Shown in pieces: positions 5,513 to 49,251 of a stretch of DNA of 64,000 bases (positions are counted from its first letter, which is position 1; each line of letters begins with the position of its first letter). The position numbers were made by a program, and so were the translations under genes. This DNA comes from Callorhinchus milii (taxonomy: Eukaryota), in assembly GCF_018977255.1 (NCBI RefSeq), contig NW_024704742.1, forward strand, positions 137,394,001-137,458,000, in the 5' to 3' direction. The notes beneath the pieces are model-generated. The model was given only the letters and a program-made list of their open reading frames with translations, was not told the origin of the DNA and did no database searches.

Positions 5513-5720
5513 TCACAGCAGGTATCTACGTCTGGCGTCTTCGTCGCGGGTCAGGTCCACCACCTCGGGGGGCACGGTCCAGGGGGGCTGGGTGACGGCT
5601 GCCCACGAGTGTATCTGTTGCTGTGGGGGGGGCTGCTCCCTGGCGCTCAGACAGTACGGGTGGGAGGTAGCGTTCCAGGTGGAACAGGTCTGAATCACGC
5701 CGGGTCTGCTCTGTGGACGT
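5513..5720 (-). CDS. ARK2N: ARK2N last coding exon (exon 5)
   Basis: GVIQ...SWAAVT...PEVVDLTRDEDARRRYLL* matches the C18orf25 C-terminus EVVDLTLDEDSRRKYLL. Acceptor ttctgcag|A; TGA at 5515-5513. Confidence 0.95.
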
Positions 5721-6983: not shown

Positions 6984-7110
6984 CTGGGATCTTCCTGCAC
7001 TCCCACAATCTCGACCTCGCTGTCGCTGGAGGCGATCTGGATTTCCTCCTTCACTGGGACGGAGAAATCTGCAAAACCATCGCCAGCCATCAGGTCCTCG
7101 TCCAGCTGCC
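6984..7110 (-). CDS. ARK2N: ARK2N coding exon 4
   Basis: GQLDEDLMA...EEIQIASSDSEVEIVGVQE matches the C18orf25 acidic SIM segment. Acceptor ggctccag|GG; donor CCCAG|gtacaa; phase 1-2. Confidence 0.93.
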
Positions 7111-14916: not shown

Positions 14917-15099
14917 CTTCGGGGGCACATTTCTCCACCACCAGACCTCGGTTCTGCACGGTGTTCACCGTGAACTCCTGATGCCCGTAGGAGAAGGCTT
15001 CCTGGACGCCAGCAGCTGCAAGAAGATTGTCCACATTCAGTACCTCGGGCTCCGAGTTAGTGTCAGATATATAATAGTGCGGAACCACTGGAGGCCCAT
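14917..15099 (-). CDS. ARK2N: ARK2N coding exon 3 (183 nt, phase 1-1)
   Basis: DGPPVVPHYYISDTNSEPEVLNVDNLLAAA matches C18orf25 DGPPVVAHYDMSDTNSDPEVVNVDNLLAAA. Acceptor tgttctcag|AT; donor GAAG|gtcagt. Confidence 0.93.
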
Positions 15100-26587: not shown

Positions 26588-29500
26588 CGCGTTGATGTTG
26601 CAATTATTTTGACATTTCTGAATTGTACACGGTTTTGTTTTTTGGCAATACAGTACTTGGCAACCAATCCTGGAACACAACAAAGGCGAGCGAGGCGCTG
26701 CGAGGGTAATGATGGACACAAGGAACAGACCTACATGCTGGCGATCGGGAGACATGGCATTCCAACTGGATTGGTGGGATCTGAGAACCCAGGATTCGAG
26801 ATCACAGGAGCCTCAGGTTAAGATGAAGAATTCGAGGTTTGAAATTCCTCACAGTTTCAGGTGCGAGGTTGTAGTCTTAAAGGAAACTTAAGATCAAGTG
26901 GGATTCTTGAATTCAAATTCAGTCCGAATTTGGAAGCAGTTTCTCTACAGCTCTTCCAAAAAAATATTGGCTTCCAATTTAAAACAGAATTTATGAATTT
27001 CCTAAAAATTCTGCACAATCTTAACTTTTAGTAAGACAATTTCAGGCTGGCTCAGTGACTGCTCCCCACTCCCTCGGAGACAGAGTTTCTCTTAAAATCA
27101 GTATCATATTTGCTAACGCTGGTGACGGGGAGGGTCCGGGCGAGGGGTAAAACCACGACGGTTCGATAAAACACTGATTCTGTTTTGATCAAAGTCAATT
27201 GAATATTAAAACATTATAAAAACCGACCCTCCGGTCAGTATCTTGTCCCATTCTTTACGTTTGCAGTTTGAGTCAGTATGGCCGTTAGTCAGACTTAGAA
27301 TCATTGCACTGCCAAGGAGACACTGCACCTAAATGTACCCTGTCCCCCAGCTGAAACCAGCTAACTGCCCAGAGCAGGAAAGGAAATCAAAGCTGTCTGT
27401 TTGGCTTTAGCTAAGTGCTGGTTGAACTCAGTGAGACATCAGGGACCTTGAAGTGGGGGAGGCAGGGGTGGGGGGGAATGTGGTCGCGGAGAAGAGAGAT
27501 TGTAAACAAATTTGCAAATAAGATCACCTATCGGGAAGTGCTGAGATATTGATCCACTCAATCATTTAACAATGTGCAAGGTCAGTTTGAGCCATCGCCA
27601 CGCCAATTCAACAAGATGCCTCTAAGCAGATAGTCGTGTCGCCCAGTTTGCTGTTGGGGTGGGGACTAGAACGAAGAGAAGGGTGTTAAGGCTCTGCAGG
27701 ATCCCACCCACTGCCTTCAGTTCTCAAGGGTTCCTCTCTCTCCTCCCTCTCCTCCCCCTCTCCTCTGCTGCAGCCCCCAAGATAACCTCAGAAAGGCACA
27801 CTCAGCCTTGAGCAGTTTAAAAATAGTGCTGCGAATAGTGAGCAGTCAGCCAAACAACTACACAGGCTACAGTCAATACTACACTGATCAGTCACCACCT
27901 CTATGAGAATATAAAGTTAACCACATGGGAGGTGGACAGAGGTTAACCAATTTCCTCCTCTCAACTTGTATCTAAAGCGACTCTCTCTCTCTCTCTCTAC
28001 TGTGGATTAAATGCCCGGAAAGCCTGGCTGATTTGTTTTAAACCCGACCCCAAGCCAGAGACCCTATGTAACCCTGGCTGAGATCGGCTCCTAATGCATA
28101 GATAGAGACCTGGGATCTGCTCCTCACCTGTCATGCAAACTGAGCCAGCCAGGACTGGGAAAACCAGGCATTTCAGAAAGGTTAGCCTAACTGGAATATA
28201 ACCACACCATCCAACATTAAAAAAAATCAATTGGCAAAAACAGAGTCGTAGGTGCTGGTTCTCGTGTCCACCTCAATAAAAAATCAAGTTAGTTCCTTTC
28301 CTTTTTAAAAAAAACAAGTTCCATCATAAATACTGGGTTTATAGTGTTTGTGCAAATGCTCCCTCACTGTTCAGTGCTACCAGCAGTTTCAGTAATGGTT
28401 TAATGCCACATATTCCTCTCCCCATTCTACTTGGACTGTTATTTGTTTACGGTTTGTTCAAGAGTCTCGCTCCCCACCCACCCACCCACCCACCCAGAGT
28501 ACACAGTTGTGACTGTCCACCTGCGATAGCATTGCGTCAAATTCCAAAATCATTCACAACAGGTTGTTTGTGTTCTCAGTATATGCAACACACAATTTGC
28601 CCAGAAAAGCTGGAGATCGCTTGACATTGGGACCCTCTATTTCACAAAGAGTCGAAGCGATTTCCATCCCTGGCCCAGACTATTGATAGTTTGGCCACTT
28701 TCTGTTTTTTTTAATGGTGTGTGTGGTGGTGGAGGGGGTGGTATGTGATAATTATCATACTGTATATTTTGTTTCACCCACAAAGTATACAGTCAATTCA
28801 CTTTACGGTATAGTCTGTGAAGCGCTTTGAGATGTCTTGAAGACACGATAAGGCGCTATATCAAATGCAAGCATATTATCATTGACAATAATACCATATT
28901 GCACTTTAAGAGGCCAACTAGTCATATTGGCATTGTGGTGTGAGGAAATGACATAAGCCCCCTCTCCCCTCCCATACGTGGTCACATTGCTGGGCGGGGA
29001 AAGTATTTTAACTGTGTAGAAAGCTTGTGATTCTATAGAAATGACCAGAATAGTGTTGGGTGAGAAATAGGGTGGGGCGCGGAGGGGGAAGAGAAAGTGA
29101 GATTAAACGCAGTCGAGGGTCAGAACACCAACTGAAATATTACATCTAACTTTAACTGAAGGCAGGAGCTTGGAAGAGTCAGTGCAGGAATTGCACTCCT
29201 GAATTTCAGTCACACCAAGGCCAAACACAAAGCTGAGTTAACACAGAGGGTTTGATGCAGTGAATTACAACAGTTTCTAGAACATATCATGCCCCCAAAA
29301 AGTACAACCAACCGACCAGAGGCGGCGTCCCCCAGATACCATGTGAATTTTGCTTTTTCTTTTAAAAAATACAAGCAGCCACTTGACTGACCACAACCTG
29401 GGCGGTGGATTCCCTCCTTACACTCCTAAAGTTGCACTGCTGCCTGTGCACGGTACTTTATAAGTCGTTGAAACAATCCTTCAAATCCCCACCCACCCCA

Positions 29501-29645
29501 CTCCCCCACACTGCAATCACCCCCTCAAACCTACCCCCCACCCCACACACGCACACACACACAAAACCCTTGCCCCACCCCATCCTCCCTCGACCACACT
29601 AGTCAGTCCAGGTACAAGAATCCACTGATGGGCCGGGCCGATGGT

Positions 29646-30091
29646 TTAAAGATTGGAGCGATTTAGGTCATGATCAGAGGCATTCCCGTTGTCCTGAAAA
29701 CCAGCCGGTGGATTATTGTTGTTGAAAGGCGTCTGGAAAGCTTGCGTACTGTCAGCGTTTGGGTGGTTGTTGCCGTAAGGGGAGTGTGGCTGCTGGGGGC
29801 TGGCTGGTAACAGGCTTCCTGGTTGGGTGGGTGGGGGAGGAACCCTGGCTGGCCCTTTGGCCTCCTGCCCCTCCAGTGGCTGTTTGGCATCCTCGTCCGT
29901 GTCCATGCGGGTCAGCTTTTCCATCCACATGCGGAAACGCTCCTCCGTCTGCCGCTGCATCTCGGCAAAACAGTTCATAGCTTCCTCCAGCACATTGCCA
30001 ATACAGTTCCGCTCCCAGGAGATCCCGGTGTCCGGCAGGCCGGCCATTTGGGCGGTGTTGCCAGTCCCCTCGGCACGGTTGTTGGCGGCAG
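29646..30091 (-). CDS. ARK2N: Candidate alternative last coding exon of ARK2N
   Basis: Acceptor gtctttcaag|CT is in phase 1, matching the exon 2 donor. It opens 148 codons (AAANNRAEG...WERNCIGNVLEEAMNCFAEMQRQTEERFRMWMEKL...RSNL*). Non-repetitive, with coding-like composition. Confidence 0.7.
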
Positions 30092-30434
30092 CTTGAAAGA
30101 CATTGAGGCCATTTGATGAGAGCGATTACAACACACATCCCCCCAAAATAGACAGGAACTCTTTCGCTCCACATTACAAAAATTTCTCTTAAAAAAAAAA
30201 TCCCGGTAGAAAAAACATGGCGGACATGAATGTGGTATTCCTAAACTTATTCTGCTCCTTGTTTAAGACAGTTCATTGAAATGGGTTGTGAAATATCCCT
30301 CCCCGATTTCTGTTGTGCCTGAGGACATCAACCAGGCTCCTGTTGCTGCTGGAGGGCTTACTCACAGCGTAAGTTAGGCCCTGAGTAAGGTCGGAAAGGG
30401 TGCTTTCGGCACTTGCTAATCGGGAATCGAAAAT

Positions 30435-30830
30435 CAACAACAACTACAATAACAACTTGCATTTATATAGCACCCTTCAAGCGGGGCAGTGTCTCGGAAG
30501 ACTTGAAGTGGCGGAGCCTGACCCTGTGCTGGGGGGGAAGGGAGGAGGTGACTAAGCACGATCGAAGAAGAAGGTCTTCAGTCGTGATCTAAAAGCAGGT
30601 CAGAGGGATAAGGTGGTGCCAGGGAGTGAAGTGATTTGCAGATGAGTAATAGGATGCCTAATATCGTTCCGTTCTGTGATAGGGAGAAAGTGGAGCCTGG
30701 CAAGGACTGGTGTGATGAGGTACAAAGTTTAGTGTAGATGAGAATATGGGCGGCGGAGTTCTGAATCAGTTGTAGTTTGTGGGTAGTGAGCAGGGGAGAC
30801 CGGGCAAGGAGGTAACGAAGGCAGGGACGA
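30435..30830 (-). mobile_element. L2 LINE fragment
   Basis: HKLQLIQNSAAHIL remnant and an (aac)n/ttgcatttatatagc tail. Confidence 0.8.
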
Positions 30831-31558
30831 GGTTTCAGCTGGTAAAGGGATAAAAGTAACGTCTGGATGTTGTGTCCGCACATAAAGTCAGGGGGAAGAG
30901 AGAAAGCAAGTAAGATAAAATATTGTTTCCTAATCCTTAAATAACTGACATAATGAGTTTCGGAACACTGCAATTTTGACCTCCCCACATAAACTTTCTT
31001 TCAATAAAATTAACTTTCAGTTGAAAAACATTGCGGTGATAAGTCCCGAGCTGTCCTCACAATCCAAACAGTCAGATTAGAATTATCCACTTTCCTGGAG
31101 CGCAGTCTGTATCAATGTACAGTTTGTATCTTGAAGAATTAGCACTTGTGGTGAACTGAACTCAGACGTGGAAAGCCATATCAACTAAAGAACGTTAAAA
31201 CACCACCTCCGTGCCAGCTTTCTGAGATATTGAATTAACTGAGATCAGTGAAGAAACAGCAATAGAAACAGAATGTCACAGCACAGAAACAGTCAGCTCA
31301 GTTCATCCACTCGGTGCTGCTGTTTTTCTCCACATGAAACACCTAAATCTAATCCTTGCTTCCCCATAACATGTAATATTACTCCTCTTCAAGCATCTAA
31401 TTCCTTTTGGAAACAACTTACCAACTCTGCTTCAACAGATTTTTTTCTAACCTAATTCTTTCTGTGATTATCTTAAATTTGTGCCTCTTTTGGCTCACTG
31501 GTTGAATATTGCAAATTAATCTATTGCTATTTACCCTGTCCAGACTCTTCATAATTTG

Positions 31559-31855
31559 AGAGGATCTGGATTCGATTCCTTGGGCAAGTTTTCTTACTCC
31601 ATACACCTCTGTTTGCCGAGCAGTAAGTAGGAACCCGGTTATTAGTCAATTGGCAAATCGCTTTCCTGGGGCAATAATCTCTCAAAAAAAATTCAAATAA
31701 TTTGGTCAATCAATCCACGACTGTTTGTGGGACACTGCTGTGCACAATTGGCTGTTGTGTTTCACCCACAAAATATGCCATCAATTCACTTTACAATATA
31801 TTCTGTGAAGTGCTTTGAAACATCTCAATGACAGGTTATCAAATGCAAGGATAAT
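31559..31855 (+). mobile_element. 5'-truncated SINE, long form
   Basis: B box through tail. Confidence 0.85.
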
Positions 31856-32345
31856 CTCCATCAGGTCAGCCTCTAACCTCAATTCTAGCCCCAAAATATC
31901 CAATATCTCAAATCTCCATTGATAACTGAATCCCACTCACACCTGGTAACATCCCAATGAATCTACATCTTTCCAATGTCTTTTAGAACCTTCCTATAAT
32001 AGTGCCAAATCTATTGCTGGTGTTCACAAAGGCTTGTTACCCCGTTTTTTTCTCACAATGAATGTTTATTTCCTGTTGCAGATGAGTGGAGTGTAACAAT
32101 GTCTGATACCAGTAACTTCCTCTTCACTGACTCCATCCACATTACAGAAGATGTGGCACCGAACATGATAACGGATCATTATTTGCCATGAAAATGACGG
32201 CACTCACTCACACATCCCGACTTTGTGAAGACTCATTGCAGCACAGTGAAATTCACAACACCGCAGTCAGGCAAATTATAGGGCGTACAATCACCATCTG
32301 TGCAGACCAAGTCAGAACACGCTAACAATGACACTTTGGAGAGAG

Positions 32346-32748
32346 GTGTCACCTTGTCTCAGTTGGTAGCGCTCGTACATCTGAAGTCAGAAGATTGGGG
32401 GTTAAAGCCTTGTTTTAGAATTTTGAACTCAGAATCCAGGCTGATATTCCTTGGAGAACACCACATTACTGGAGGTGCAATCCTTTGGATGAGACATTAA
32501 ACTGAGGCCCTGAATGCCTGTTCAGGTGGATGTTACACTATTGCAAAGCAGAAGGGAGTCTCTCCCGTGTCCCAGCTAAAATCCTACAGATATATAATTG
32601 GTCACTCACGACCTGGCTGTTTGCTGCGCACAAATTGGCTGCTAAGTTTGCTAAAAATATACACTAACTACACTTGATAGAAAATCCTGGGAAGCATGTT
32701 GACATGTCCCCCTGACATGAAAGGTGCAACATCAAATGCAAGGATTAT
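32346..32748 (+). mobile_element. Older DeuSINE-type element (SacSINE/AmnSINE-like core); fragments also at ~18450-18690, 19780-20015, 36570-36775, 49130-49230, 53235-53350
   Basis: Different tRNA head (tctcagttggtagc..tctgaagtcagaag) and core taaactgaggccctg..tgcctgttcaggtgga...ctcccgtgtcc. Confidence 0.7.
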
Positions 32749-32976
32749 ATCCTGCTGAGATTTATACCCAGAAAACCACAGCATGGGCAGTCTAGAAGAT
32801 CAAATCAATTCTCAGGAGCTCCATGACTCCCTAACAACGTTGGATGCTCACCTACAAAATAGTTACAATAAACCCTGTGAAGCGATTTGAGAGGTCTTCC
32901 CAACATGAAACGTACGGTCATGTATGGAAAGGGGTAGGAGACAACCGTGTATGGTCATAGGTACCATTCTTTGTAG

Positions 32977-33232
32977 GTTACCTAGCAGTAAGTAAGAACC
33001 CAGTGCTAGTCGATTGGCAGATTACTTTTTCGGGGTAATAATCTCTCAAAGACAAAATTTTGGTAAATCAATCCAAGACTGTTTGTGGGAACATTGCTGT
33101 GTGCAATTGATTGCTGCGTTTCGCCCACAAAACACCCAGCCAATCCACTTTACAGTATATACTACGAAGCATTTTGAGACATCTCAATGACGTGATAAGG
33201 TGCTATATCAAATGCAAGGATTATTATTATTA
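32977..33232 (+). mobile_element. 5'-truncated SINE, long form
   Basis: Core and tail. Confidence 0.83.
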
Positions 33233-33284
33233 AAGATCCTACAAAAAGAGGAAAGATCACCCATTGTCCATAAATCCTTAATGG

Positions 33285-33925
33285 TGCAAAAAGCCATTGG
33301 AATCTTAGGTTTTATAAACAGGGGTACAGAATATAGAAGCAAAGATGTAATGCTAAATTTATATATATATATATATCTCATTAGTTAGACCACAGTTATC
33401 ATATTGTATCCAGTATTGGTCACCCCACTTCAGGAAAGATATCAAGGCAATAGATAAGTTGCAAAGATTAACTAAGATGATATCAGGGATGAGAGGTTTA
33501 GCCTATGAGCAAAAACTGGAGGAACTGGGACTTTTTCTGCAGGGACAAAGCAGGTTGAGGGTGACCTGGTAGAGGTCTTTAAAATTATGAGGGATATTGA
33601 TAGATTCAATGGGGAGAAAATTCCACTAGTTAGTGAGTCAGTAACTGGAAGGGATCAATTTTAAATAGTAAAGGAACAAATTGGAGAGGTTTGGAAAATG
33701 TTTTCAGGCAGAGTTGTTAGGAAATGGAATGCCCTGCCGGGAGCAGTGGTTGAGGCAAATCCATATTGGGCTTCAAGAGGGAATTAGGCAGATCTGTTAA
33801 ACAGAGTCAGATATAAGGGTGTGGGGATAGGGCAGATAGGTAAGACTGAAAGGATTGCTCTTGAGGGAGCCAACATGGACACAATGGCCGTAATGGCCTT
33901 ATTCAGTGCTGTAAATTTCTATGTT
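33285..33925 (+). mobile_element. CR1 3' fragment
   Basis: ILGFINRGTEYRSKDVMLNLY remnant followed by the CR1 3' region. Confidence 0.85.
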
Positions 33926-34974
33926 TTTCAAGGTCTCTTAATACTGTCCTCAGATCCACATGAGTCAGAGTTAAAGCTATACCTTACCCCAGGCAACAAT
34001 CTGAACTGTGGCCAAGGAACAACTGGTGCCAGCACAAATATCTGCAGAATGTTTAGAGCTCTCTGCTAGAAGCAATCCTAAATTCCTATTTCACATTGAT
34101 GGACAGTGAATGAGAATTCAAGATGGTCGAAGGAGAAATAGAACCAGTGCAGCTATGACAGGGAAAGTGCAGAAGAACGGAGATGAAAACAGGGAGAAAT
34201 TTTCCAATTACAAGAAATATGAGCAAAGTCATTTGAAGATGGAAAAAAAACGCCTGAAATGTGATAATTGAAGAGATTCTCATTAACATCTAAAGATGGA
34301 GCCCTGGGAGCCAAACTCCTTAAACCGTACAGTGTACAGCCACATCGAGCAATCGCTAAGGGACGATCACAGGTAATTATACAGTCAGTGGAATATGTAC
34401 AGGACACACCAAAAAATCAGCTGCCACATCAAGACCAGGTTTAAGTTATGCCTATAATTCCTGGATCCCTGTAGCTTTATAGAAAAACCATGAGCTTCCC
34501 ACCTCCACCGGTAACCAGTAATGTACAGCACTGCAGTATCTCCAACATCCAAAAGCCAAACGGGAGAGAAGCAGCAAGCCTCGTCTCAGATGATACAGAG
34601 AGTTAAAAATTTTCTTTCCCAAGTGTAGGCCAAGCCTTGGGCAGCATTTAAGGAAATCTCCCTATAGTTTACCCCCTTTTTTGGAACCTCGCACATCTCA
34701 CAAACCTGATCTCTTGAGTTTAGGCTCAGGGCTCTCTCAAACTGAGATGGTAAGCAATACAGCCACTTGGGCTGTCCTCTCTTACATGTGCCCATTTCCT
34801 TACCGTTCATCCAGTGATTTCGCTTAAAATTAATGCTGAAGGCAGATTTTAGTCAAAATGTAAGACATATTTTAAACCAAGAATTTTGTGGAGGAGCCGT
34901 GTGAGCAGGTGAGTTTCAGAAGGCACACACTCAGTGTCCGGTGTCTGAAATTCAACTCCACTATATCATATTGT

Positions 34975-35343
34975 GGAGTCTTGTAGCAGAGTGGGTAGGG
35001 CACTCGTCTCACAAGCGAGAGGATCCGGGTTCGATTCCCGGGCGGTGCGAAACCTTAGGCAAGTTTCCTTACTCCACACGTGTCTGTTTACCTAGCAGTA
35101 AGTAGGAACCCGATTGTTAGTCGATTGGTGAATCACTTTCTGGGGGTAACAACACTTTAAAAGTAAATAAATGCTTTGGTTACTCAATCACGACTGTTTG
35201 TGAGACACTGCTGCGCACAATTGGCTGCCGCGTTTCCCCCGCAAAATATAGTTGATTAATAATAATCCTTGCATTCACTTTAGAAAATATTCTGTGAAAT
35301 ACTTTGAGACATCTCAACAACGTGATAAGGTGCTATATCAAAT
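34975..35343 (+). mobile_element. tRNA-derived SINE, long form
   Basis: Head with B box ggttcgattcc, core and tail. Confidence 0.88.
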
Positions 35344-38133
35344 AGATGCATTAGTATGATCAGTGACCTCTCAGAAGAGCAAACACCTCGTCTGGTATCT
35401 CTCTCGCCTGTCACCACACTAACATTATTTGCTATGTTGAAACATTCACAGCTTTATCAACATCCAGTGTTATTTATAATCTGCAATGACCCCTGTTTTT
35501 CCTCGCTCCCCCTCCTACCCTATCAGAAGATACTGTTGCAACTCTATTCCTCCGTCATAACCTTGTGTAAAAATATCCAAACAAAGCATCACAATGATAA
35601 AACGTCAGTAACCAAAACCGGCTCCAACCTAAAAGCTCAGGAGGTTTTATAAACAATTATTAAATGAAGCTGAAAGGTTTCAAGGGCAAAACTCATGGAG
35701 ATCAGTTAATTGTATTTGATTCAGCATCTATATTACCAAATGTGGCAAAGTGCTTGAAAAGGAACTGGGCCATCAAGTGTAGTGACTATTTGTAGACAAG
35801 TGTGGCATCCATTTTGCATACCACCAAGTCCAACAAAGAATCATGGTGTGAATGACCAATTATAATAATAACCAATAAATGACCAATAAATTTGGTTGTT
35901 GGAAAAAAATTCCTATCTCTCTTCCAATGATGATGTAAATAACAACAAGAAATTACACTTGTATAGTGCCCTTCACATCGGAAAGGCGTCGCTTAACATC
36001 ACCTTAACAGGCACAAATGGGACCTTCAATGACAGCGTTCCCCAAATATTGAACTAGTGTCAGCCTAGACTGAGCGCACATCTCAAAGTGGACCTAGAAC
36101 CCAATACATCCAATCTAGAGGCGAGAGTGCAATACAGATACAAATGCGTAAACAAAAGGGTTATTATTTCACTCAGACAGCAATGATACCCTGAACACAA
36201 CCTCGCACTTTCACAATATTCAACTTAAAGACGGTGAGAAAAGGAAAAGACACACTTACATCCAATTACAAGTTACATCCTGTTTCACTACATTTCACAG
36301 CTAACTGCACAATGTGTCTAGACTGAGTTACACAAAAGACAAAGAATGCTGTAAAGTAGGAGCCCAAACTAACTGAGCGTAGGGGAGAGGGGTGTGAGAA
36401 GAGGGAACGGTGGGGAAGGGGAGGGAGAAACATATGGTTGAAAAAATATTTTAACCAAAACACTGATTGTCCAGCGCTTTGGGACGTCCTCCGGACGTGA
36501 AAGGTGCTCTGCAAATGTAATTTTGTTGTTGTTGCATTAGTATTCAACCACTTACAGGTTAGTAGCTTTCACTGTTCAGACACGGATTAAAAGACCCCAG
36601 AGTATGAATGGAAAAGAAGAGGCAGTTTCTCTCTGTCTAACAATGCATATAAATCGGCTGCTCTCCTCGTGGGTGTTTGACAACGGTTGTCACTTTTGTT
36701 ACAAAAGTGATCACTGTACTTGGCAGTAATTACTGTGGGGCGGGTTTGGGTATCTCCATGCGATAAAGCATTAAAAAAAACACATTTTTACTTTCTTTTG
36801 GGATCAATAATGTAAGACCTGGGTCATCATAATTGTTGTTTCTCTTTCATGAGGAAGCAACCAGACCAGTTAGCCTTTAAACCACCTATCCAGCTTTTGG
36901 TTAATACAATCTTCCTCCTAGTACGCTGCCCAACATTCCTGTGTGTGCGCGCGCGCGCGTGCGAGTGCTGGGGTGAGGGGATGAGAAGGGAGAAGGTAAG
37001 CAGGGTCTCCTTAGAGCTGAGCAGGTTCCAAAGTTACACGCTTGATAACAGAACGACGGAATCGACATTCAGTCTCGGTAGCCCAATCCCTGATTCAGGA
37101 GAGTCCGCAGTACTCCAGGAGTACTGTTGGTGACAGACCAGCCAACCTGGCTCATCAGCTGGACTTGGAGGAGCAGGGATGAGAACAGGGATTCTTCCCA
37201 AAGAAGGGACTAACTGAGCGTAGAGGGAGAGGGGACTGAGAAGAGAGATTCTTTCCACTTGGCTTCTATTAACCTCGCAAGCCAAAGTCCTAATAAGGAG
37301 CCAGACAAGCAACGGGAAGCTTGTGAGACAGTGTACATTTGTACAGTGCCTTTGACATTGGGAGGACATCCCAAGGCGCTAGTTAGCTCAAGTATTACCC
37401 CAACAAACACCACACCCTGGGGGTCGCCAGACTGTGCCAAACTGTATTCAATACTCTCTGGAATTAGGTAAACAGGGTGTGTCCCTGCAGGAAGAGAACG
37501 TGCATCCGTTCCAGACACATAAATTTCCATGTAACCAAACTCAGTCTGGTGTAGATATTCTTAAACTGGTGATGGGTTCTGCACTCATCAGCCATCCAGC
37601 TGACAAATGCAAATCATGGCTAATATTGGCCCTTCATCCAAAATTCCCATTAATTAGACTTCATCACACTGCTTGCTTTAAGAATTTAAGTATTTCAATG
37701 AAATGCTCAAAGTATTTTCAAGCACTGTGACACAATAAGGCTCTTACCAAATGCAGATTTATTATTTATTTTAAGCGCTCTGAAACGCCATCCGGCGTGG
37801 AGGGCGCTATATAAATCCAAGTTGTTGTTGTTATTTAGTTAACTGGAGCAAATTGTTTGCAATTCTAACTTTAAGGCTAGCGCAGTAAAAGGAAAGACCG
37901 ATCTCTCAATTAGTTCAGAATAAATAATGAAGCAAAAACTAGAGGAAGAAGAGAATTTTAAATGGAATCCGAGCGCATTAAACTGAATGCCGTGCACATA
38001 AATACTTAAACCCATTAGTAGGATGGTGGTGATCTGGAAGGAAACCCACTCATAGTGCTGGGCAGCATGCGACTCCCTCGCACCCTGCAAGATAGACTGA
38101 TTTCATGAGCTCTCTGGTCACCCATCACTCTCA

Positions 38134-39300
38134 GGAGTACTGGAGCTTAGTGGTTATAGCACTTGCCTCGCAAACGAGAGGACCTGGGATCGATTCCTGG
38201 GCAGGGCAAAACGTTTCCTTACTCCATACGCTTCTGCTTACCTAGCAGCAAGTACATAAGAAATGCTAGACGAAAAAAAGACTTAAGGTCCACGTAGTTC
38301 GCCTTCTACCTTCCAGGCGGTCGCACGCAATAGGTGAATATGTACCGTATTCATAATGTTAAAAGAAAACGATCTAATCTGTGTTTGAAGGAATCAACAT
38401 TTCCTTCTTCAACCGTCTCCCTAGGGAGCCTGTTGCACAGGTTCACTATTTGCTCACTGAAGTAGCTTTCTGAATTGACCCTCTATCAATCGCAGGCCAT
38501 GTTCTCTCATTTTACTATTCTGGACTAGTTGAAACAGTCTATCTTGATCTACATTGTCTAGCCCCTTCAGAATATTAAAGACAGCAATTGTTTCGCCTCT
38601 CAATCTTCTCTTTTCCAGCGTGAAAAAGCCCAATTTAGTTAGTCGCTCCTCATAGTCCAGTGCCTCCATTCCCTCAATCACTTTGGTTGCCCTCCTCTGT
38701 ATCTTCTCGATCTTTTTGTACCAGAACTGTACACAGTACTAAGTATGGTCTCACCAATGTTTTATTCAGTGGCAGGATTACCCCACTATTTCAGCTTGCT
38801 ATTGATCTTTTGATACTTGCTATTGATCCTTTGATCAATAGCATCAACAAGTAGGAACCCGGTTGTTAGTCGAGTGGCAGATTGCTTTTCCGGGGGTAAT
38901 AATCCATTAAAAAAAATTCACTCAATATGGGACACTGCTGTGTGCAATTGACTGCCGTGTTTCACCCACAAAATATACAGTCTTCACTTTACAGTATATT
39001 CTGTGAAGTGCGTTGAGATGCCTTGAAGTCATGATAAGGTGCTATATTCTCTTTGACCGAGCCTTCAGCTCCCCTCTCGACTCTCTTCCCCCTCCTCGCT
39101 CCCTCCCTTCCCTCCCCTCACCCTGACCATTTCCCCCTCCTCGCTCCCTCCCTTCCCTCCCCTCACCCTGACCATTTCCCCCCTGCTCGGGTCATGACCC
39201 AACTGTGCAGCGCCTTGGGACGTCCTCCTGACGTGAAAGGCGCTTTATAAATGGAATCTTGTTGTTGTTGTTGTATATCAAATGCAAGGATTATTATTAT
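38134..39300 (+). mobile_element. SINE split by a CR1 (~38255-38825, minus) and an L2 3' end (~39049-39272, plus)
   Basis: SINE pieces are collinear. Junction duplications caagta and tatat. CR1 remnant YEERLTKLGFFTLEKRRLRG. Confidence 0.85.
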
Positions 39301-39351
39301 CAATGATGAAGTCGACAGGTATACATAATAGGTTAACCGGCAATAATATTA

Positions 39352-39555
39352 ATAATCTTTGCATTTGATATAGTGCTTTTCACGTGTTCTCGACGTCTCA
39401 AAGCGCTTCACAGAATAGACTGTAAAGTGAATTGACTGTATATTTGTGGGCGAAACGCAGCAGTGTCCCACAAACAGTCATGGATTAAAGTGAACAACTT
39501 ATTATTGATTTTTTTTCTTGAGGGATTATTATCAGGAGTGTGAAGTAGGGAAACC
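39352..39555 (-). mobile_element. 5'-truncated SINE, short form
   Basis: Tail and core in reverse orientation. Confidence 0.82.
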
Positions 39556-39559
39556 AACC

Positions 39560-41421
39560 CGATCCCCCATCTCCGCCGCTAGATGCCACTAAACACAACC
39601 CTAAAATCCTTTTTTCCCCACCACCCACTACCTCCTCCGTGCTCCCCTCAGGCCTCTTCAATCTTCATATAAAACGCCAAGTGCGAGGAGGTCATGGACT
39701 TCTTTTCATCTAAAATTCACAACATCCGCCAGGCAGCCTCATCCACCTGCCTCTTATCACCCACCACCACACCCTCTCTGTCCCTCTCATCCTCCCCATC
39801 ATCTGCTCCTACCACCACCCCCATCCTACACTCCTTCCTCCACATCTCTCCCTCCTCCCTCTCACCCACCATCACCTCCATGAAACCCACCACCTGCTGC
39901 CTCGACCCCCTCCCCACCAATTTGCTGGTCACCCAGCTCCCCCTCCTCTGCCCACTACTGACTGATGTCATCAACCAATCCCTCTCCTCCGGATTAGTCC
40001 CTGCTCCCTTCAAAACGGCTGTCATCACCCCCCTCCTCAAGAAACCTTCCCCAGATCACTCAAACCCCAGCCATTACCACCCCATTTCTAACCTGCCCTT
40101 CCTCTCAAAAGTCCTAGAACGCATTGTTGCCAATCAACTTCGCGCAAACCTCTCCTCCCACTCCCTCGTCGAACCCCTCCAGTCCGGTTTCCGCCCTGTC
40201 CGCAGTACAGAGACTGCGCTTGTGAAAGTCACGAACGACATCCTCTCTATCTGTGACCAGGGCTCCCTCTGCCTCCTTGTCCTCTCCGCGGTGTTCGACA
40301 GTCGATCACGCCGTCTTCCTTCACTGACTTTTCTCCGTCATCCACCTCAGTGGGATTGCACTCGCCTGGTTCAAGTCTACCCTCACAAACCTCCAGCAGT
40401 ACATCTGCACAAACGGCTTCTCCTGCCGCTCTCACCCGGTTACCTGCGGGGTATCCCAAGGATCCATCCTTGGCCCCCGCTTCTCATCTGCAGACACGGA
40501 GTACATTGGATGTGGACGACACTCAACTCTATTTTTCCACCTCTCTTTACGACCCCCAGTCCCCTGATGTTCTGCCTGTCAGATCTCAGGGGCTGGATGA
40601 GCACAAATTTCCTTCAGCTGAACGTTGACAAGACAGAAGCCATACTCTTTGGCTCTCGTCAACGTCTAAAATCTCCACCTACCCGATCTCCCCCTAAAAC
40701 TCTCTGAACCCGTACGCAACCGAGGCGTCAGGTTCGACCCCCAATTATCCTTCCTCCCCCACACCCGGTCCCTCACCAGCACTGCCTTCTTCCACCTCCG
40801 ACATATCGCCCGTCTCCACCAATACCTCTCTCCGAAAGCCGCTGAAGCCCTGGTCCATGCCTTTGTCACCTCTCGGCTGAACTATTCTAACACCCTCCTC
40901 GCCGGCCTCCCCTCCACTACCATCCATAAAATCCAGATCATGCAAAACTCTGCCGCCCGCATTCTCACCCGCACCAAACTCCGCTCCCCAATCACCCCAG
41001 TCCTGGCCAGACTGCACTGGCTGCCTGTCCCAGAGAGGATCGACTTCAAGATCCTCACACTTATATTCAAATCCCTCCACTCCTCTGCACCCCCCGACCT
41101 CTTCTCTCCTCAAAACAGTACCCGTTGCCTTCGTTCCTCCGGATCTGGCCTCCTCCTCGTCCCTCGAGTCCTCCGCTCCACCCTTGGCAGCCGTGCCTTC
41201 AGCCACTATGCCTCGAGGCTCTGGAACTCCCTTCCTCACTCCCTTTCGCCTCGCTCCCTCTCTGCCTATTTTCAGGTCTCTGCTGAAGACCTTTCTTTTT
41301 GACCGTGCCTTTGGTCATCTTCCCCCCCTCTCCCCCTGGCTCGGCCCTGGGATCCGTTACTGTAAAGCGCTCTGAGACGTCGTCCGGCGTGGAGGGCGCT
41401 ATATAAATCCAAGTTGTTGTT
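39560..41421 (+). mobile_element. L2 LINE, 5'-truncated, decayed RT
   Basis: ORF 39694-40707 FFSSKIHNIR..LDPLPT..FKTAVITPLLKK..PISNLPFLSKVLER..QSGFRP..STETALVKVTND and 40940 QNSAARILT..LHWLPV. Frameshifted; (ttg)n tail. Confidence 0.93.
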
Positions 41422-41967
41422 GAACACGAGTTGAACCCAAAACCTTCTGACCCAGATGAAAGTGCCTGCTTTCTCAGGAGAAGGCAACAACAACTTGCAT
41501 TTATAAAGCGCAGGAAAGGTAGCATGCCAGAACGCTTGACAGTGGTGGAGCACGACACTGAGCTGGATAAACGTTGGTCTTCTTTCATGTAGCAATTTTT
41601 ATGTTCAATGACAATTGAATTTTATGGGGTTTCTGCTATTCCCATTCCAAAATGCCATGAAGCTGTGATCAGGAATTATCATTCACTTTCTGGCCTCCCC
41701 CACAAATAATAGCCACGTGAGCGATGGAGCCCATAACATCACCAGATCCCAGTACAAGTCAGCAGCTTCTGACGAGGAAGGAAAAAAACTGCCAGGGAAA
41801 TAAAATCTTAAAATAGTCTACAACAACTACAAGATTACATTTGTGTAGTGCCTTTCACGTCAGGAGGACTACCCAAGGCGCTGAAATTGGTCTACTTGCC
41901 AATAAACCATCTTAAAGTGCACACACACAGGTCAGGAGGCTGGGTGCATATAACATTGGACTTTTCA

Positions 41968-42225
41968 TTATAGGAACATAGGGACAGGAGAAGGCCATTC
42001 AGCCCCTCAAGCCTGTTCTGTAAGATCATCACTGATCTGTACCTCAACTCCAATTATCCACCTTTGCCCCATATTCCTTGATACCCTACCCTAACAAAAA
42101 TCTATCCACCTCAGTCTTGAAAATTTCAAGGGGTCCAGCACCCACAGCCTTCTGGGGGAGAGCGTTCTAGATTTTCACTACCCTTTTGGTGAAAAAACTG
42201 CCTCTGATTTCACTCCTAAATAGCC
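41968..42225 (-). mobile_element. CR1-clade 3' end
   Basis: ataggaacatagg..aggccattcagcccctcaagcctg tail in reverse orientation. Confidence 0.75.
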
Positions 42226-44974
42226 ATAAAGCTCCGAAAACATTCACCTACAGAAAGAACCTCACAATTACTTTGGAAGCATTTAAAGGAATAGAAAATG
42301 ATTGCCTTTTACAAGTTGGTGCTCGCTATACGTAAAAAGAGCCTCTCCAGGGAAAAGAGGGAGGGAAATGGATTAAGAAATTCTTGCCAAATGATTACGT
42401 ACAAAGAATTATATTCCAGAACTGCAGTATACCATCAATTATCTCCCCTGAGGATTACCATCGCATACTCTAACATAAGTGTTAGCCAGCGATATGGTGA
42501 CAGAAAAAGCCATTAAGACAACCATGATCGTTGGCATCTGGGACTGCCTTTAGTGTGTAAGGCAATCCCTGGTAAACACGGGGACAGTGGTATAAATATC
42601 GCCAACACTGAGCTATCAACTGTGCAGACATATCCAAGCTGCTAACGGTGACTGTATCTGCTCTGTTCAGGGTAGCCTGGCCTTAGCGGATTCAATTCCA
42701 TTTGTCCTGAGGTGCACTTTGGGTGTCAAGACATTGCTAAAAGAGGAAGCTCCACTTTGCAGACACAAACCCAGAGCTGGGTCAGGTTCAGTAACTTAGG
42801 AGGAAGGCAATTCAAAGGAAAAACAAAAGCAATTTAGCTGCAACTTAGTTTGGGTAAGGACTTGAACAACTATTCTATATATTCAGGAAGCTTGAAAATC
42901 TATGTACATAGAATGATGCAGCACAGAAATGTGATGTTCAACTATTTATGCTGCACAGTCTAAAGCATCTTGCAGCATATACTGTCAAGTGAATTGACTG
43001 TATTTTGTGGGCGAAATGTCTGCAAGCATCTCGTCTAGAGTAAAACTAGACTAACAAAATTAAAACTTGAAACCCAGGACAGGACAAATACAACTTACAG
43101 TTACACACTTTCCACACTGGATAAACGTCAAAACAAAGATGATGGTTCCTACTAAGTAGAAAGGAAAGATGGAAGGAGTTGTTTAAGGATAATGAGCAAC
43201 GGCAAGGTCAGAAATGGGTATTTTGTGGGAATGCTTGAAGACTACTTGACTGCATGGGATAGTTTTCATACAACTTTCAGCTTTCTCTCCCTTTGCCGTT
43301 AAACAACCTCCTGAACAATTAAACTGCAGTGCCAACAATACAGACGCGCACTGGAGTTAAATTTAGCCAAGGACATTGTGAAGTGCATCAGATGACTTCC
43401 TTTACTCAGTAGACTAACATTGCAGTTCAAAAATGATTACGCCTGTCCTTGCCCACCTGACAAACACTGCAGTATGGAGGGAGCCCCCAGCTCAGATCAC
43501 AACTGCTGTGGGCCAGCAAAGAGACGCAATATGCTTTAGTGTCCCCATTCAAGTAAATGAACTATAATTCTCCTTGATTTAATTGCAGGTGTATTTAATG
43601 GTAAGAAAAGCAGCCATTTTGTCTACAGTCATAAAGCAAACAACCAATTTTATCTGCAAGATTGTTGGCCAGTACAGCATGAAATAAACATTCTACTTCC
43701 GAATAGAGTTGCAGGATACTTAACACCAACAACAACAACAACAAGATTCCATTTATAGAGCGCATTTCATGTCGGGGGGACGTCCCAAGGCGCTGTATAG
43801 TTGGGTCAGGACCCGAGCATTGGGGGGGGAAATGGTCAGGGTGAGAGACAACAAGCAGACAGGAGCTCAGTGCATCAGCACTTGTCCAGATTGTCAGTCT
43901 AGACCGTGAGCTCAAGCCCCACCATGGGGACTTCAATCCATGAAACAGAAGGAAGAGTGTTATTGATTGAGACTTGCTGATAAGATCCCCGATTGAAAAC
44001 ATAACAGTGGGGATGTGTGAGATAGGAAACTCAGTGTTGTCTTTTATACATAAAAAAACAAATGGTCAATTTAAAAATCTCAATCTACCTCCCACTCTAC
44101 AGTTACCAAACCGAGAGAATGGGACAGGTGCAATTACCAGATGAAAAATAAGTGTGATAATAATTTAAGAATTGCTAGACAAAAGAAGCCCAAGTGGATG
44201 AAACCAGCCCGTGGTCTGCTAGTTGGGATTCCAATATCCGTTGCCCAGCACATCACCTTGGAGCCAGTTAGAACTATAAGGAGACCCCTTCCCTACAGAG
44301 GATAGTCCAGCTGGTTGTTTGACATCCAACAAATCTTGCTTTTATATTCTTTTTATCATCTGGATACAAAACCCAAGGATTCCATTTGCCTTGTTTATGA
44401 CTGATCTTGGCAAACATCTTACCAGTGCTGCATGTGTTGAACTGCGCTCAAAAACAGAAGTCGTTGGGAACAGTTTTCAGATTTCCAGCTTCTCCAGTAT
44501 TTTGTGTTTTGAACTGTGCTATGTATTGATACAAAAAGAAACCATTTTACGCAACCATTCTATTATTTGCTTCTCAAGGTGCAACAGTGAATTGATTCTG
44601 CATTGGTCACACATTACAGAATGCTGGTCAAGCCGGGCGGGGGACATGGGGCAGGCTGTAGGCCGCTGAGTGGAGAGGTTGATATGGGATCGAAGAGGAG
44701 GAAGGGTAAGGGAGAGATTCAGGGGTTGTACCAAGAGGCTTATGTTAATTAGTAGTTAATTAGAAACACAACAGAACACTATGGAGACGAAATGCAGTCA
44801 TCCAAGTAACATGTATGAAAGCACATCTTCACTCATGTACATTTTTGGTATTACAAATCTGGATGAACTACTGGTCTAAATTGGAGTTACCATTTCCTGG
44901 GAAGAGTGTTAATGTTGAGGTACAGGAATGCATCTGCTGACTTTTCACTATTAAAACCTTCTCACCCTGGCACC

Positions 44975-45322
44975 TCCCTTTCCTCTCCAATCTGCTTACT
45001 CCCCAACCAACTACCTAATCTCAATTGGGTCCGACCTACTGCATGTCCCTTGTGCCTTCCGTTCCACCATCGGTGGCCACTTTCAGCCACTGCACCCTGA
45101 AACTTTGGAACACTCTTCCTCTATCCCTCCGCCTTGCCCCCTTCCTTCCCCATCTTCAGGTCGCGCCTCAAGACCTTTCTCTTCGACCGTGCCTATACAC
45201 CTTCCCCCAGCTCAACATTGTGCTCCGCCCTTATCTGTCATTTTCCTGCGTGGAGAGCACAATTTGTTGTTGTAGTTGCGTTACCCTGTGTGAGGGGCGC
45301 TATATAAATGCAAGTTGTTGTT
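44975..45322 (+). mobile_element. L2 3' fragment
   Basis: FSHCTLKLWNTLP remnant and tail ggcgctatataaatgcaagttgttgttg. Confidence 0.78.
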
Positions 45323-47883
45323 GGTATTTCTTTATGGGCTTATACATAATAAGAAGAAGTCAGGGGTGGGGGAAGGATGAGAGAAAAAGAGGATGGACAC
45401 CCTACTGTATCCCAAACCTTAGCCACTCTTAGGAAACCCTCAATTGCAATCCTAGTTGCAGAGCAGCGTTTATGTGGGACAAGGGAGATTCTAACGGGAT
45501 TCTTTATTAAATAACCCTACAGGTTTGACCTTGGTGTCAGCCACAGCAAATTGCGTGAAGCAGCTTGACAGAAATATTGGACCAGAAAAAGGCCACAGGT
45601 CTGATATCAGTAGCCAGCAGACCTCACATGTGAATATTCCTGTGGATTGCTTTCAGTGAACTGGGCAGGACAAAGACAAGCCCACATTTGAGAGCACAGT
45701 ATTGATGGGAGCTATGGATTGAACCCGCGAGGCAGATCTCGGTTTATAAAAAGGCTCGTCCGTCAATATCAACCTGATCTGAGCTGCCTCCTCACTTGGC
45801 CTCTAGTGCAATCATGAGCTCAGCTACAGATCGGATCACACGCTGAGCTGGGTGAACGACAAGCTCCTCCAGTGCCAGCCAGCAATGTGAGATCAGTGCC
45901 TCAGCACGGCACAAGGTCAACACAAAGTCCAAAGCACTCGCTTCACAGTGTGCAACTTCATTTAGAAATTCCCATTGCATCATAGGGACTAAAGGAAGCC
46001 ATTCTGCTGAGTACATCTATGTGGTACCCATCATATCACCCTTTATTATGAATCCCACTCTCCAGCCCTCTCCTCCCCACCAATTCCTTAATATTTTACT
46101 GTTGCAACGCTTGCCCAATTTCATCACACAGACTGTCACTTAGCCCATCACGCCTTTGCCATCATTAGATCACTCTCTATTTCTACTATTCACACTTTCC
46201 TCATATCCTGTAATCTCTTTAATGCCTTGGATCCAACTCCCTTTAGAATATTTCTATCGATCCAGCCTAGAGAGCCACTTTAGAGTAATAAAAGCCACAC
46301 ACTTACAACCTTCCTCCCAAAGAAATTTCTTCTCCCATTCTTCTGCTAACAATCGAAGCGCCTTGACATGACATGTCAAACATATCAAATGCAAGGATTA
46401 TTATAAAACAGAGACTGGGGCCCTTTGTTACCAATTTCCCAATTTAAGGAAATAGATTTTCTCTGTCTATCTTGTCACGTCCTTCAGAATCACGTCCCCT
46501 CTCAATCTCCTCTGCTCCAGTGGGGGGAAAAAAAAATTGAGACGGCTTTTTTTCCAATACATATATCATCTCAAATCACTAAATTCTGCTGCTATCACAA
46601 AGCGATCAGTGAAAGACAATGACGGGAATGTGACATGTATATACAATGTCCTTCTGAACCATGAACAAAAAGCCTCACGCTACGATAACAATTCATTCCT
46701 CCCAACCTGAGCGCTGTCTAGCTAGAACACTGAGCAAGGCGCTAGTTGGAGCAATGAGGCTGTTAAGAGCATCACTCTCCTCAACGTTACGGTTATTCTT
46801 GTCTAATACAACGGGCAGCGTTACACAGCACCTTCAGCGCATCAGAGAGCTGAGTCTTCTTGCAGTGTTGAGTTTTAGCTATACGCTACTTCTTGAACCC
46901 AGCACTGTAAAGATTTATTGCAAAAACAATGCAGAGATGATATGGTCTGAGGGGATCAATCAGTGATGCATGATATTGGGACAATATCATGAAAGTCAAC
47001 GACAATCAGCCATGTGTGTCTTTACATGGGCTTCAGAGCTGGGTTGGACGGCATGCACTGTTCCTCTCCCTGACCCTATTCTGTCAATGCTAAGTCATGC
47101 AGGGAAATGGCTCTAGTGTCTGCCACCCTGTTGAGGTGCCAGTCCAGGCAGATTGAGTGCAAGCAACTGAACCCCTACCCCTTTCCATTGTGTCTGAACT
47201 GTCACCCACACACATAGACACCATGAACCATCCCAGAATGTTAGGGGTGGAGAGAAAGAAAGATTTGGATGGAAATGGAAAGTGCGGAACCTGCCTTCCT
47301 CTCTCTCTATCCCACCCTAGCGCAAGGGGACGGAGAGCAAAACCAGAGGATTTAACCCAAATTTAAGTCATGCATGGATTTAAAGCAAATATTCAACATT
47401 GTTGATCAGTCACCTGAATTACCAAAGATTTTCTATCCCACTGTATATCTCAGAGTGCTGCTCAACCCTGGATAACAACCATTAAACATCTGTTCAAAGA
47501 TTTTTGTTTAAAAAGAGGAAAAATATCCTCCTCGCAATCTTCCTCCTATGTACTTCACTCTTCAAAAGCCACAAAAGATACTGACACCTCCTGAAATGCA
47601 ACTGGGTGAAACAGCAGGGCCTTGCTGTCTAAATATAGCTCACTGCAACACACAGGCACCTTAATCAAATCATGCAGCAAGTTCCATGCCAGCTAAGCAT
47701 TCGTTTTTCACTTCTAGAGCAGAAAGTTTCCCCCCAAATTATTTATAGCACTTTTGTCTAAGTTACAACTGCACCCACCGCAAATTAAAAACAATGGGGG
47801 GAGATGAGTAACTTAACATAACATAAGCGGGGGAACCACAACACAGCCCGTGTCCCTGGGAGTTAGGGAGCGAGTGCAAATAC

Positions 47884-48637
47884 CTGGGATCTCTGTGCTA
47901 ATGGTCCGCTTGCTGTTTCCGGAGCCCTCATCCTCGGAGGAGCTGGTGCTGGAGTCGCAGGTCAGGTCACTGTCGCTGGTGCTGCTGTCCTGCAGTAATG
48001 TGTACTTCTTGCGTGCGGCTGCCTCCCGCTTCTGCCTGAGCAGCCGCATGCGCTCCTTCTGCTTCTGCGTGCGGGCCTTGGACACCCGGCCATTTGGTTT
48101 GTCCCCGGGGCACGAGCGGTTCTTCTTGGGAGCCATGGCCGAAGTCTCGCTCTCGGACCTTGACCGCCGAGACTTCTTGCCGGCAGGCGGCGGTCCCCCA
48201 CCTCCTCCGCTCCCAGCAATCCCTATGGTGTCCTCAGGCGGTGCAGTGCCGGCCGTCTCGCTCTCCTCCACAGACGAGAGGGTGTCGGAGTCCGCGAGGT
48301 GGCCGCTGGAGGAGGGGGACACCATACACTGATTGGAAGAGTCACTATCATATGTACGACCGTGCTGCTGCTTTTCACTGTCGGCGGATGGTGGCTGGGA
48401 CTCCGAGTCCTGCCCGAGCTCCATCAACAGGCACGGCTCCCCCGACTGCCCGCTTGGCTTCAGCGGCAGCTCGGGCTCCTCCTGCTTAGCTGGGACAGTC
48501 TCTTTCTGGACAGTCACCACATTGTCCTTGTCGGCACAGTCTGCCTTGGTGTCCTCAATACCCTTGGCCGGAACCTCAGCCTCTCCCAGGCCATCCTGGG
48601 AGGAGAAGTCGGTCTTCTCCGCTCCTTCCATCTTCAT
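47884..48637 (-). CDS. ARK2N: ARK2N (C18orf25/ARKL1) first coding exon (exon 2; exon begins at 48735)
   Basis: Translation MKMEG...PCLLMEL...[16 protein letters not shown]...[12 protein letters not shown]...[36 protein letters not shown]...EIP matches recalled vertebrate C18orf25. Acceptor ttctgttctcttcag| at 48736; donor CCAG|gtattt at 47883; phase 1. Confidence 0.96.
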
Positions 48638-49251
48638 GTCACTGAGTCCTGCGTCGCTCCCTCTGAAAGGTCATAGAGCACGCAGGCGGGAGGTTGGGCA
48701 CGGCGCTCAATTAGATCTGGTGATAGTAGGGGCACCTGAAGAGAACAGAAGTGTTGGTTACAGTCAGCTCAGCAAATCTGACACAAGTAGAGCATCTGTT
48801 CCCTTTTACCAGAGCCCATTAAACTCATCTGACGTCACGATTACCCACAGCACATTTCTCCATTGCTGCTAGAACATGGAAATGTTTGGCTCATACATAG
48901 CAAGTCACCTCATTTAACATGTTGCCTACTCAGCACCAGGAAATCATCATGCGGGGGGTAGGGCAGGGTCTACAATTCTATCTAGGTGTTTCTAGACAGA
49001 CTGCACATTCCTTCTTTCAGTGAGCCGGGAGGTGATCTGGTACACTTCAAAAGTAGAAGAAAGTACACTTCAGTGCTAGATCAGTTCAATGTAGTACTGA
49101 ATAAGCTATAAGTGACATAAGGTACTGTGTGCGCTAATTCAGATGAATGTTAAAGACCCTGTATCACTATACAAAAGAACAGAAAAGAATATTTCTCTTA
49201 GTGTACTGACCAACAATACTTCACATAGGTCAGTCATTCTCATGGCTGTTT

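Follow-up and report, generated by a model that had tools for sequence, protein, structure and literature searches.

The ARK2N locus and its two endings

The window (the whole 64,000-nucleotide stretch of Callorhinchus milii DNA that was analyzed) carries on its minus strand the gene ARK2N (C18orf25), in which exon 2 can be followed by either of two endings. The relevant features are listed below.

47884..48735, minus strand: ARK2N exon 2, with the ATG at 48637, the RNF111_N domain, a serine-rich stretch and a phase 1 donor common to both endings
30092..30115, minus strand: acceptor (AAG) and adjoining intron of the alternative exon
29646..30091, minus strand: coding part of the alternative last exon, entered in phase 1, with stop TAA at 29648-29646 and a contig across the junction
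29901..30017, minus strand: conserved core (exon-peptide residues 25-63), 27 of 39 positions invariant in 76 homologues, predicted amphipathic helix
29895..30002, minus strand: residues 30-65, gapless alignment to the first half of the Myb/SANT-like C-terminal helix
29649..29882, minus strand: P/Q/N-rich tail of the alternative exon, weakly conserved
28900..29645, minus strand: probable 3' UTR of the alternative exon; contigs of runs X1 and X4 extend past 28900
14917..15099, minus strand: canonical exon 3 (DGPPVV...), the competing acceptor; donor at 14947 or 14917, read from the sequence
6984..7110, minus strand: canonical exon with SSDSE-EVEIV, i.e., the first SIM and the adjacent CK2-type site; skipped by the alternative isoform
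5513..5707 (5' limit approximate), minus strand: canonical last coding exon with EVVDLT, the second SIM; skipped by the alternative isoform

The acceptor of the alternative exon is an AAG preceded by a short pyrimidine tract, with its AG at 30093-30092 on the minus strand and the first exon base at 30091. As the earlier note had stated, no competing AG separates it from the in-frame TAA at 30128-30126; the next AG upstream is at 30160. The donor of exon 2 (last base 47884) is in phase 1 and matches the acceptor, and the reading frame stays open to the TAA at 29648-29646. Splicing exon 2 to 30091 yields a protein of 399 aa that equals XP_007907111.1 ("C18orf25 homolog isoform X3 [Callorhinchus milii]") letter for letter, and both the phase and the peptide given earlier hold. 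The alternative last exon is thus real. It is, however, not "hidden", as had been proposed, since RefSeq and UniRef models of C. milii and of many other jawed vertebrates already include it. The RefSeq ARK2N isoforms in question (X3 here, "isoform X2" in many vertebrates) represent the same protein, exon, and junction; they are automatic models, in which the exon carries no domain call.

The motifs EVEIV and EVVDLT start at 7018 and 5566, respectively, and exon 3 starts at 15099. Both motifs lie beyond the alternative exon and are therefore absent from the isoform that ends in it, which agrees with the earlier claim that splicing at this acceptor replaces the SIM-bearing C-terminus. The ATTAAA hexamers nearest to the exon are located at 28715 and 28404.

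As for the surroundings, a GC-rich island (63%) at about 58000-60000 of the window is the likely promoter and first exon of ARK2N, and HAUS1 exons lie upstream on the same strand, just past the end of the window (L022:3682-7516, minus strand). In UniRef model P0003, HAUS1 is fused to the alternative exon through a LEE that the two have in common, and similarly merged names occur in records from birds and carp; such fusions are probably annotation joins. Accordingly, neither P0003 nor the chimeric model P0121 was accepted as a true protein, and both are treated as joins of gene models.

Transcript evidence

Contigs of 4 out of 13 runs, presumed to be RNA although not recorded as such, were compared with positions 28900-48780. 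Among the records listed, the junction 47884|30091 is crossed by one contig of one run (X2, record 18), with bridging defined as at least 31 letters on either side. Letters 1-784 of this contig correspond to 48667->47884, and letters 785-1249 to 30091->29627, i.e., through the stop codon. Runs X4 and X1 each have a piece that ends at 47884, and a second X4 piece ends at 30091. X10 contigs run unspliced through both sites. The 15 contig joints listed (of 3516) are all repeat-driven and none of them is 47884|30091, the junction evidence coming from the table of pieces.

Contigs also cover the stop codon and reach past 28900. Because the X1 and X4 pieces continue beyond this position, which is the end of the stretch compared, the 3' UTR of the alternative exon is probably at least 750 bases long; contigs cannot reveal an RNA end. 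The only variant in the coding exon among the variants listed, at 29898, is synonymous.

In the intron next to the acceptor, positions 30092-30115 read GLNVF(Q/K) in frame, and the same segment is present in gene models from lizard, frog, bird, and ferret (P0045, P0074, P0112, P0166), which suggests a conserved splice element. This segment is non-exonic in C. milii, because an AG is not available there.

Distribution and conservation of the exon

Genome searches with the exon at the DNA and the protein level return 1 match each, the locus itself (these counts are lower bounds). The check for dispersed copies proposed in the earlier note thus finds a single locus, and the peptide, described there as not LINE-like, does not belong to a dispersed repeat. 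The protein search with the exon matches 78 of 214 candidates, which, together with the junction contig, substantiates the alternative ending itself as well as the earlier expectation that predicted isoforms of other vertebrates would include it. The matches belong to sharks, rays, bichir, sturgeon, gar, bowfin, eels, a mormyrid, coelacanth, amphibians, reptiles, birds, one monotreme, and marsupials. Leaving out P0002 (XP_007907111.1) and P0003, both of which derive from the C. milii locus, 76 homologues remain, and in most of them the exon occupies the orthologous position after exon 2.

These 76 sequences, which range from sharks to marsupials, all have the same residue at 27 of the 39 core positions (residues 25-63); the C. 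milii exon agrees with 26 of these 27. The invariant sites include charged residues off the hydrophobic face, and changes elsewhere in the core are conservative. Near the end of the tail, NNN-like and ENGN-like motifs are present in 72 and 68 of the 76 homologues, respectively, the rest of the tail being weakly conserved. At the protein level, this pattern points to purifying selection on the coding frame.

A profile search of 1.84 billion proteins gives 22 matches, of which 20 derive from the alternative exon by inspection, among them isoforms of bass and carp as well as a cluster that contains catfish. These matches overturn the idea that most teleosts have lost the exon. P0137 (a Diplonema repeat protein) and P0139 (a bacterial coiled coil), considered as relatives, are unrelated by inspection. 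No RNF111, jawless vertebrate, or invertebrate protein is recognizable among the profile matches, several of which are unnamed.

Five models, four from frogs and one from a bird, run on from the helix exon into the SIM exons, a read-through use that had not been foreseen. The four frog models (P0047, P0052, P0058, and P0074) use an internal donor near the exon end and join at the same place, with FPEN or YPEN followed by DGPP, so that the encoded proteins, up to 548 aa long, contain the helix as well as the SIMs; the join in the bird differs. In frogs, the helix exon may therefore be a composite exon. The corresponding donor position in C. milii has no GT. Among birds, models P0128, P0167, and P0077 (thrush, parrot, and sparrow) are ARK2N-like copies in which the exon is cut short or seems to be frameshifted; they may be duplicates or lie on sex chromosomes.

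Apparent decay in placental mammals

With the wallaby exon as query, 83 of 95 candidates match, and these include three named placental clusters (two Rhinolophus bats and ferret). This search overturns a total loss of the exon in placentals, as 0 placentals among the 78 matches had indicated. Over the 71-residue core, identity to wallaby equals 70/71 in chicken and 69/71 in turtle, and falls to 49/69 and 51/69 in the bats and 55/70 in ferret, while the N-terminal parts of the bat and ferret proteins are identical to wallaby at 181 of 188-189 residues. Fisher tests against chicken give p = 1e-5 for bat and p = 1.2e-4 for ferret, values in which positions are non-independent and phylogeny is ignored. 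W25 and A42 are altered in both bats and in ferret, and F52 in both bats. The ferret model additionally has seven extra residues at the junction, consistent with use of an upstream acceptor, and ends early in unrelated sequence, probably owing to a frameshift. Seven unnamed records look like similar relics (P0126, P0131, P0133, P0135, P0138, P0163, and P0165).

Judging from these few records, the exon appears to be decaying in the three named placental clusters, and selection on it seems to have been relaxed in placentals. The carp and catfish copies, however, alter 8 and 11 of the 27 invariant sites, respectively, which speaks against relaxation confined to placentals; these proteins look diverged throughout. 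Placental decay was not anticipated in the earlier note, and it was not found in the literature searched.

Predicted structure of the peptide

AlphaFold, given a 12-sequence alignment, predicts a single helix over residues 27-69, with block pLDDT of 96-99 over residues 31-60 and no confident structure ahead of the helix. The hydrophobic moment of residues 30-62 equals 0.52 at 100 degrees, a value reached by 0.1% of 5000 shuffles (p = 0.001), and the sequence reads with a 3-4 hydrophobic spacing (L34, M38, F41, Q45, T48, F52, W55, L59, and M62). The core is thus predicted to form a long amphipathic helix with coiled-coil-type spacing, in agreement with the helix that the earlier note had assigned to it and with the AlphaFold check that it had suggested.

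As for known folds, Pfam scans of the exon report chance-level matches only (6 weak matches in the 12-member set), a PDB sequence search with the exon returns 3 matches at E of 0.29-1.1, none of them significant, and Foldseek with the single predicted helix returns 0 matches. The best ESM Atlas scores, 0.79 for the core and 0.86 for the Myb C-terminus, serve as leads only. A homodimer prediction for residues 18-70, made from the sequence without an alignment, has a score of 0.02 and a mark of 0.32 and speaks neither way.

Similarity to Myb/SANT-like C-terminal helices

The earlier note had pointed out a resemblance to C-terminal helices of Myb/SANT-like (Harbinger-related) proteins. The Myb/SANT trihelix domain itself (PF13837, PF13873) has no Pfam match in either the exon peptide or the 399-aa protein, and the ARK2N locus is not among the 6 PF13837 matches in the C. 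milii genome. The C-terminal helix of P0173, a shark orthologue of one of these 6, shows a weak, gapless alignment with the core (p of 0.007-0.045). A two-member Myb/SANT C-terminal profile, searched against 3799 ORFs from the window and other loci, places four Myb/SANT C-terminal exons at the top, followed in fifth place by the ARK2N exon (E = 0.17). Conversely, apart from itself, the ARK2N profile matches one of these four exons best (E = 0.045).

A four-member profile, built from Myb/SANT-like C-terminal exons picked without reference to ARK2N, finds the ARK2N exon at E = 1.6e-4 among 3812 sequences, with the next unrelated sequence at E = 2.7. No shuffle attains the score of the exon, whether plain (2000 shuffles) or heptad-preserving (another 2000), and HAUS1 coiled-coil decoys are unmatched at E <= 10. 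The shared register consists of two F positions 11 apart, a Q, and [DE]E[RK]F, all four Myb/SANT C-termini aligning to it without gaps, and is limited to the first half of the Myb C-terminal helix. According to hhalign, 32 columns align with the same profile at E = 2.9e-4 and a probability of 40%. Leave-one-out Myb profiles reach the ARK2N exon at E = 4.5e-4 to 1e-2. The bacterial repetitive coiled coil P0139, a hard decoy that had been picked up by the ARK2N profile, in a test with few true coiled-coil decoys, is matched at E = 0.007 and 0.04 in 2 of the 4 leave-one-out runs.

Among the 22 matches of the 1.84-billion-protein profile search there is no Myb/SANT protein at E <= 0.001, and genome searches with single Myb C-termini return 2 matches each without reaching the ARK2N exon. 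The proposed resemblance passes the targeted profile tests and is weakened by P0139, by the hhalign probability, and by the outcome of the large search. It was not found in the literature searched and has moderate support from these profile comparisons.

Two intact ORFs in the genome (L025 and L026; 419 and 371 aa) encode Harbinger-type transposases (DDE_Tnp_4), and 9 further DDE_Tnp_4 matches are short or broken. In tblastn, the L025 and L026 transposases have no match at E <= 0.1 in the window or three flanking stretches, and no transposase-like sequence was found in the window, the flanks, or beside the Myb genes tested. Since none was found there, a donor of the helix could have been either a host gene or an element; terminal inverted repeats or a target-site duplication are unlikely to survive at such an age.

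Two further observations concern Myb/SANT genes. Sturgeon model P0121 begins with 62 residues that are recognized by the Myb/SANT C-terminal profile (E = 1.2e-7) and joined to the alternative exon, which suggests a Myb/SANT-type piece near this exon in the sturgeon genome. L004 with L016 (G000:C9:12195896-12204881) is a PF13837 gene. Its Myb domain shows 96-98% identity across 8 proteins, of which those with a name belong to sharks and rays, and its C-terminal exon is 99% identical to that of a ray. The gene, inconsistently named in databases, looks like a domesticated Myb/SANT gene.

Interpretation and alternative explanations

The reading that we prefer, with a probability of roughly 0.7, is that the exon supplies a conserved helix which binds a partner and thereby directs an ARK2N without SIMs elsewhere. 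The exon 2 donor can be joined to the intronic acceptor 17.8 kb downstream in place of exon 3 at 32.8 kb. The 399-aa product consists of the RNF111_N/serine-rich half, a 40-residue amphipathic helix, and the P/Q/N tail, without SIMs. That charged residues around the helix, and not just its hydrophobic stripe, are invariant speaks for a specific partner.

According to two studies of the human protein, PML-body localization depends on the SIMs (PMC10542384), and the RNF111-N region binds CSB in a repair role for which the SIM is dispensable (PMC11181095). By analogy with such studies, the isoform without SIMs would still contain the N-terminal region that binds CSB, and would probably still bind CK2-beta, but would lose SUMO-dependent PML-body targeting and RNF111 recruitment; the exon-2 stretch from residue 217 of XP_007907111.1 onward is presumably the counterpart of the stretch in the human work. 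With the N-terminal half kept and the SIMs dropped, the alternative isoform should therefore be a CK2 adaptor without a SUMO address. Its helix would act as a coiled-coil-type binding surface that takes this adaptor to a different conserved partner, and the choice of exon would thus switch its address. In placentals, selection would have been relaxed, the few records suggesting that the exon persists as a decaying and sometimes still annotated relic.

As for the origin of the helix, we consider it about as likely as not that the source was a Myb/SANT-like (Harbinger-related) gene, whose C-terminal interaction helix would have been captured early in the history of jawed vertebrates. Convergence of coiled coils, with the exon and a binding helix both real, is given slightly less than an even chance, and the same tests bear on it from both sides. 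It is favored by the absence of a Myb/SANT match in the large search, by the hhalign value, by the lack of transposase-like sequence in the window or three flanking stretches, and by the bacterial coiled coil, which scores alike in half of the leave-one-out runs. However, the Myb/SANT family was named ahead of the test, the four C-termini chosen without ARK2N share a single gapless register with the exon, and neither heptad-preserving shuffles nor HAUS1 coiled coils reproduce the match.

The remaining explanations concern the exon as a whole. It might be mainly a truncation switch that removes the SIMs by early termination, the peptide being incidental: both SIM exons are indeed removed, the acceptor looks weak and its adjoining intron seems conserved, and the exon is annotated as spliced in bats and ferret despite peptide decay. 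The strong conservation of the core, with conservative changes outside its invariant sites, and the four frog models that retain the helix yet continue into the SIM exons make this improbable. To a similarly small degree we credit the suggestion, in keeping with the name of the gene, that PKA regulatory subunits are anchored by the first half of the helix in the manner of an AKAP. A resemblance to AKAP helices is conceivable, and the hydrophobic pairs C29-I30, V33-L34, A37-M38, and F41-A42 form an amphipathic face. Knockout mice have reduced PKA signalling, according to bioRxiv 10.1101/2023.10.30.564812, but the mouse belongs to the clade in which the copies seen decay. Moreover, no RII-binding family is among the 6 weak Pfam matches of the 12 members (weak matches filtered), and conservation spans about 35 residues, including the charged second half. 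Finally, an ordinary repeat fragment or annotation artefact, to which we assign a negligible probability, could be suspected from an intron full of LINE/SINE pieces and from clear chimeras among the models with the exon (P0003 and P0121), but is refuted by the homologue matches and their orthologous position after exon 2, by the spliced contig, and by the single genome match at either level.

Under the preferred reading of a redirecting helix, its partner, if the helix is Myb-derived, would most likely be a Myb/SANT-like or Harbinger-transposase-derived protein. According to PMC9392472 and PMC9710019, Harbinger Myb-like proteins and NAIF1 bind the transposase or HARBI1, and the plant Harbinger Myb protein HDP2 needs its C-terminal region to bind the transposase-derived HDP1 (PMC5339849). 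An unlikely though specific extension is that the captured helix still docks on Myb/SANT-like or Harbinger-transposase-derived proteins and delivers CK2 there rather than to SUMO/PML bodies, a link lost in placentals; if this were true, the lost partner should be findable by co-loss.

Relation to known systems and significance

Alternative terminal exons of comparable effect are known: CSB-PGBD3 arises from a transposon-derived one, and in LCOR/PALI1 a last exon swaps the C-terminus. As in these cases, an intronic alternative last exon of ARK2N gives the host N-terminus a new C-terminal module. In contrast to them, the ARK2N module is a 40-residue helix and not a whole transposase or a long domain, and it dates to early jawed vertebrates and is decaying in the placentals examined.

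Canonical human ARK2N/ARKL1, a CK2 adaptor with two SIMs as described in PMC10542384 and PMC11181095, shares the RNF111_N half with the alternative isoform, which lacks both SIMs and the CK2 site by the first of them and carries the helix. The MSANTD family and the Harbinger Myb-like ORF (PF13837) resemble the exon, without gaps, over the first half of their C-terminal helix, and both they and the ARK2N exon appear in jawed vertebrates, where, according to PMC9392472, three MSANTD genes were domesticated. In comparison with them, the ARK2N exon lacks a Myb/SANT DNA-binding domain, the latter half of the helix, and a transposase nearby, and homology to them is putative. If the Myb/SANT origin is true, the interaction helix alone, and not a DNA-binding or catalytic part, was captured from a transposon-related family.

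No study of the alternative exon was found in a search of the literature on C18orf25/ARK2N/ARKL1 that covered mostly journals without subscription. The word "isoform" is absent from the main text of PMC10542384, PMC11181095, and PMC3627648, and in the portion consulted of bioRxiv 10.1101/2023.10.30.564812 the passages with this word concern other proteins. The exon itself is known from annotation, and what is new here is the strength of helix conservation, the placental decay, and a moderate case for Myb/SANT descent.

In the literature consulted, functional work on ARK2N (muscle, repair of transcription-blocking damage, and PML bodies) has all been performed in human or mouse, i.e., in the clade of apparent exon decay. 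A 40-residue helix that stayed almost constant between sharks and marsupials, only to be freed of this constraint in placentals, suggests a specific partner which was altered or disappeared there and for which a direct search is feasible. In chicken, frog, fish, and marsupial models there seems to be a second isoform, whose C-terminal module is different and strongly conserved, and ARK2N knockouts in these animals would remove both isoforms.
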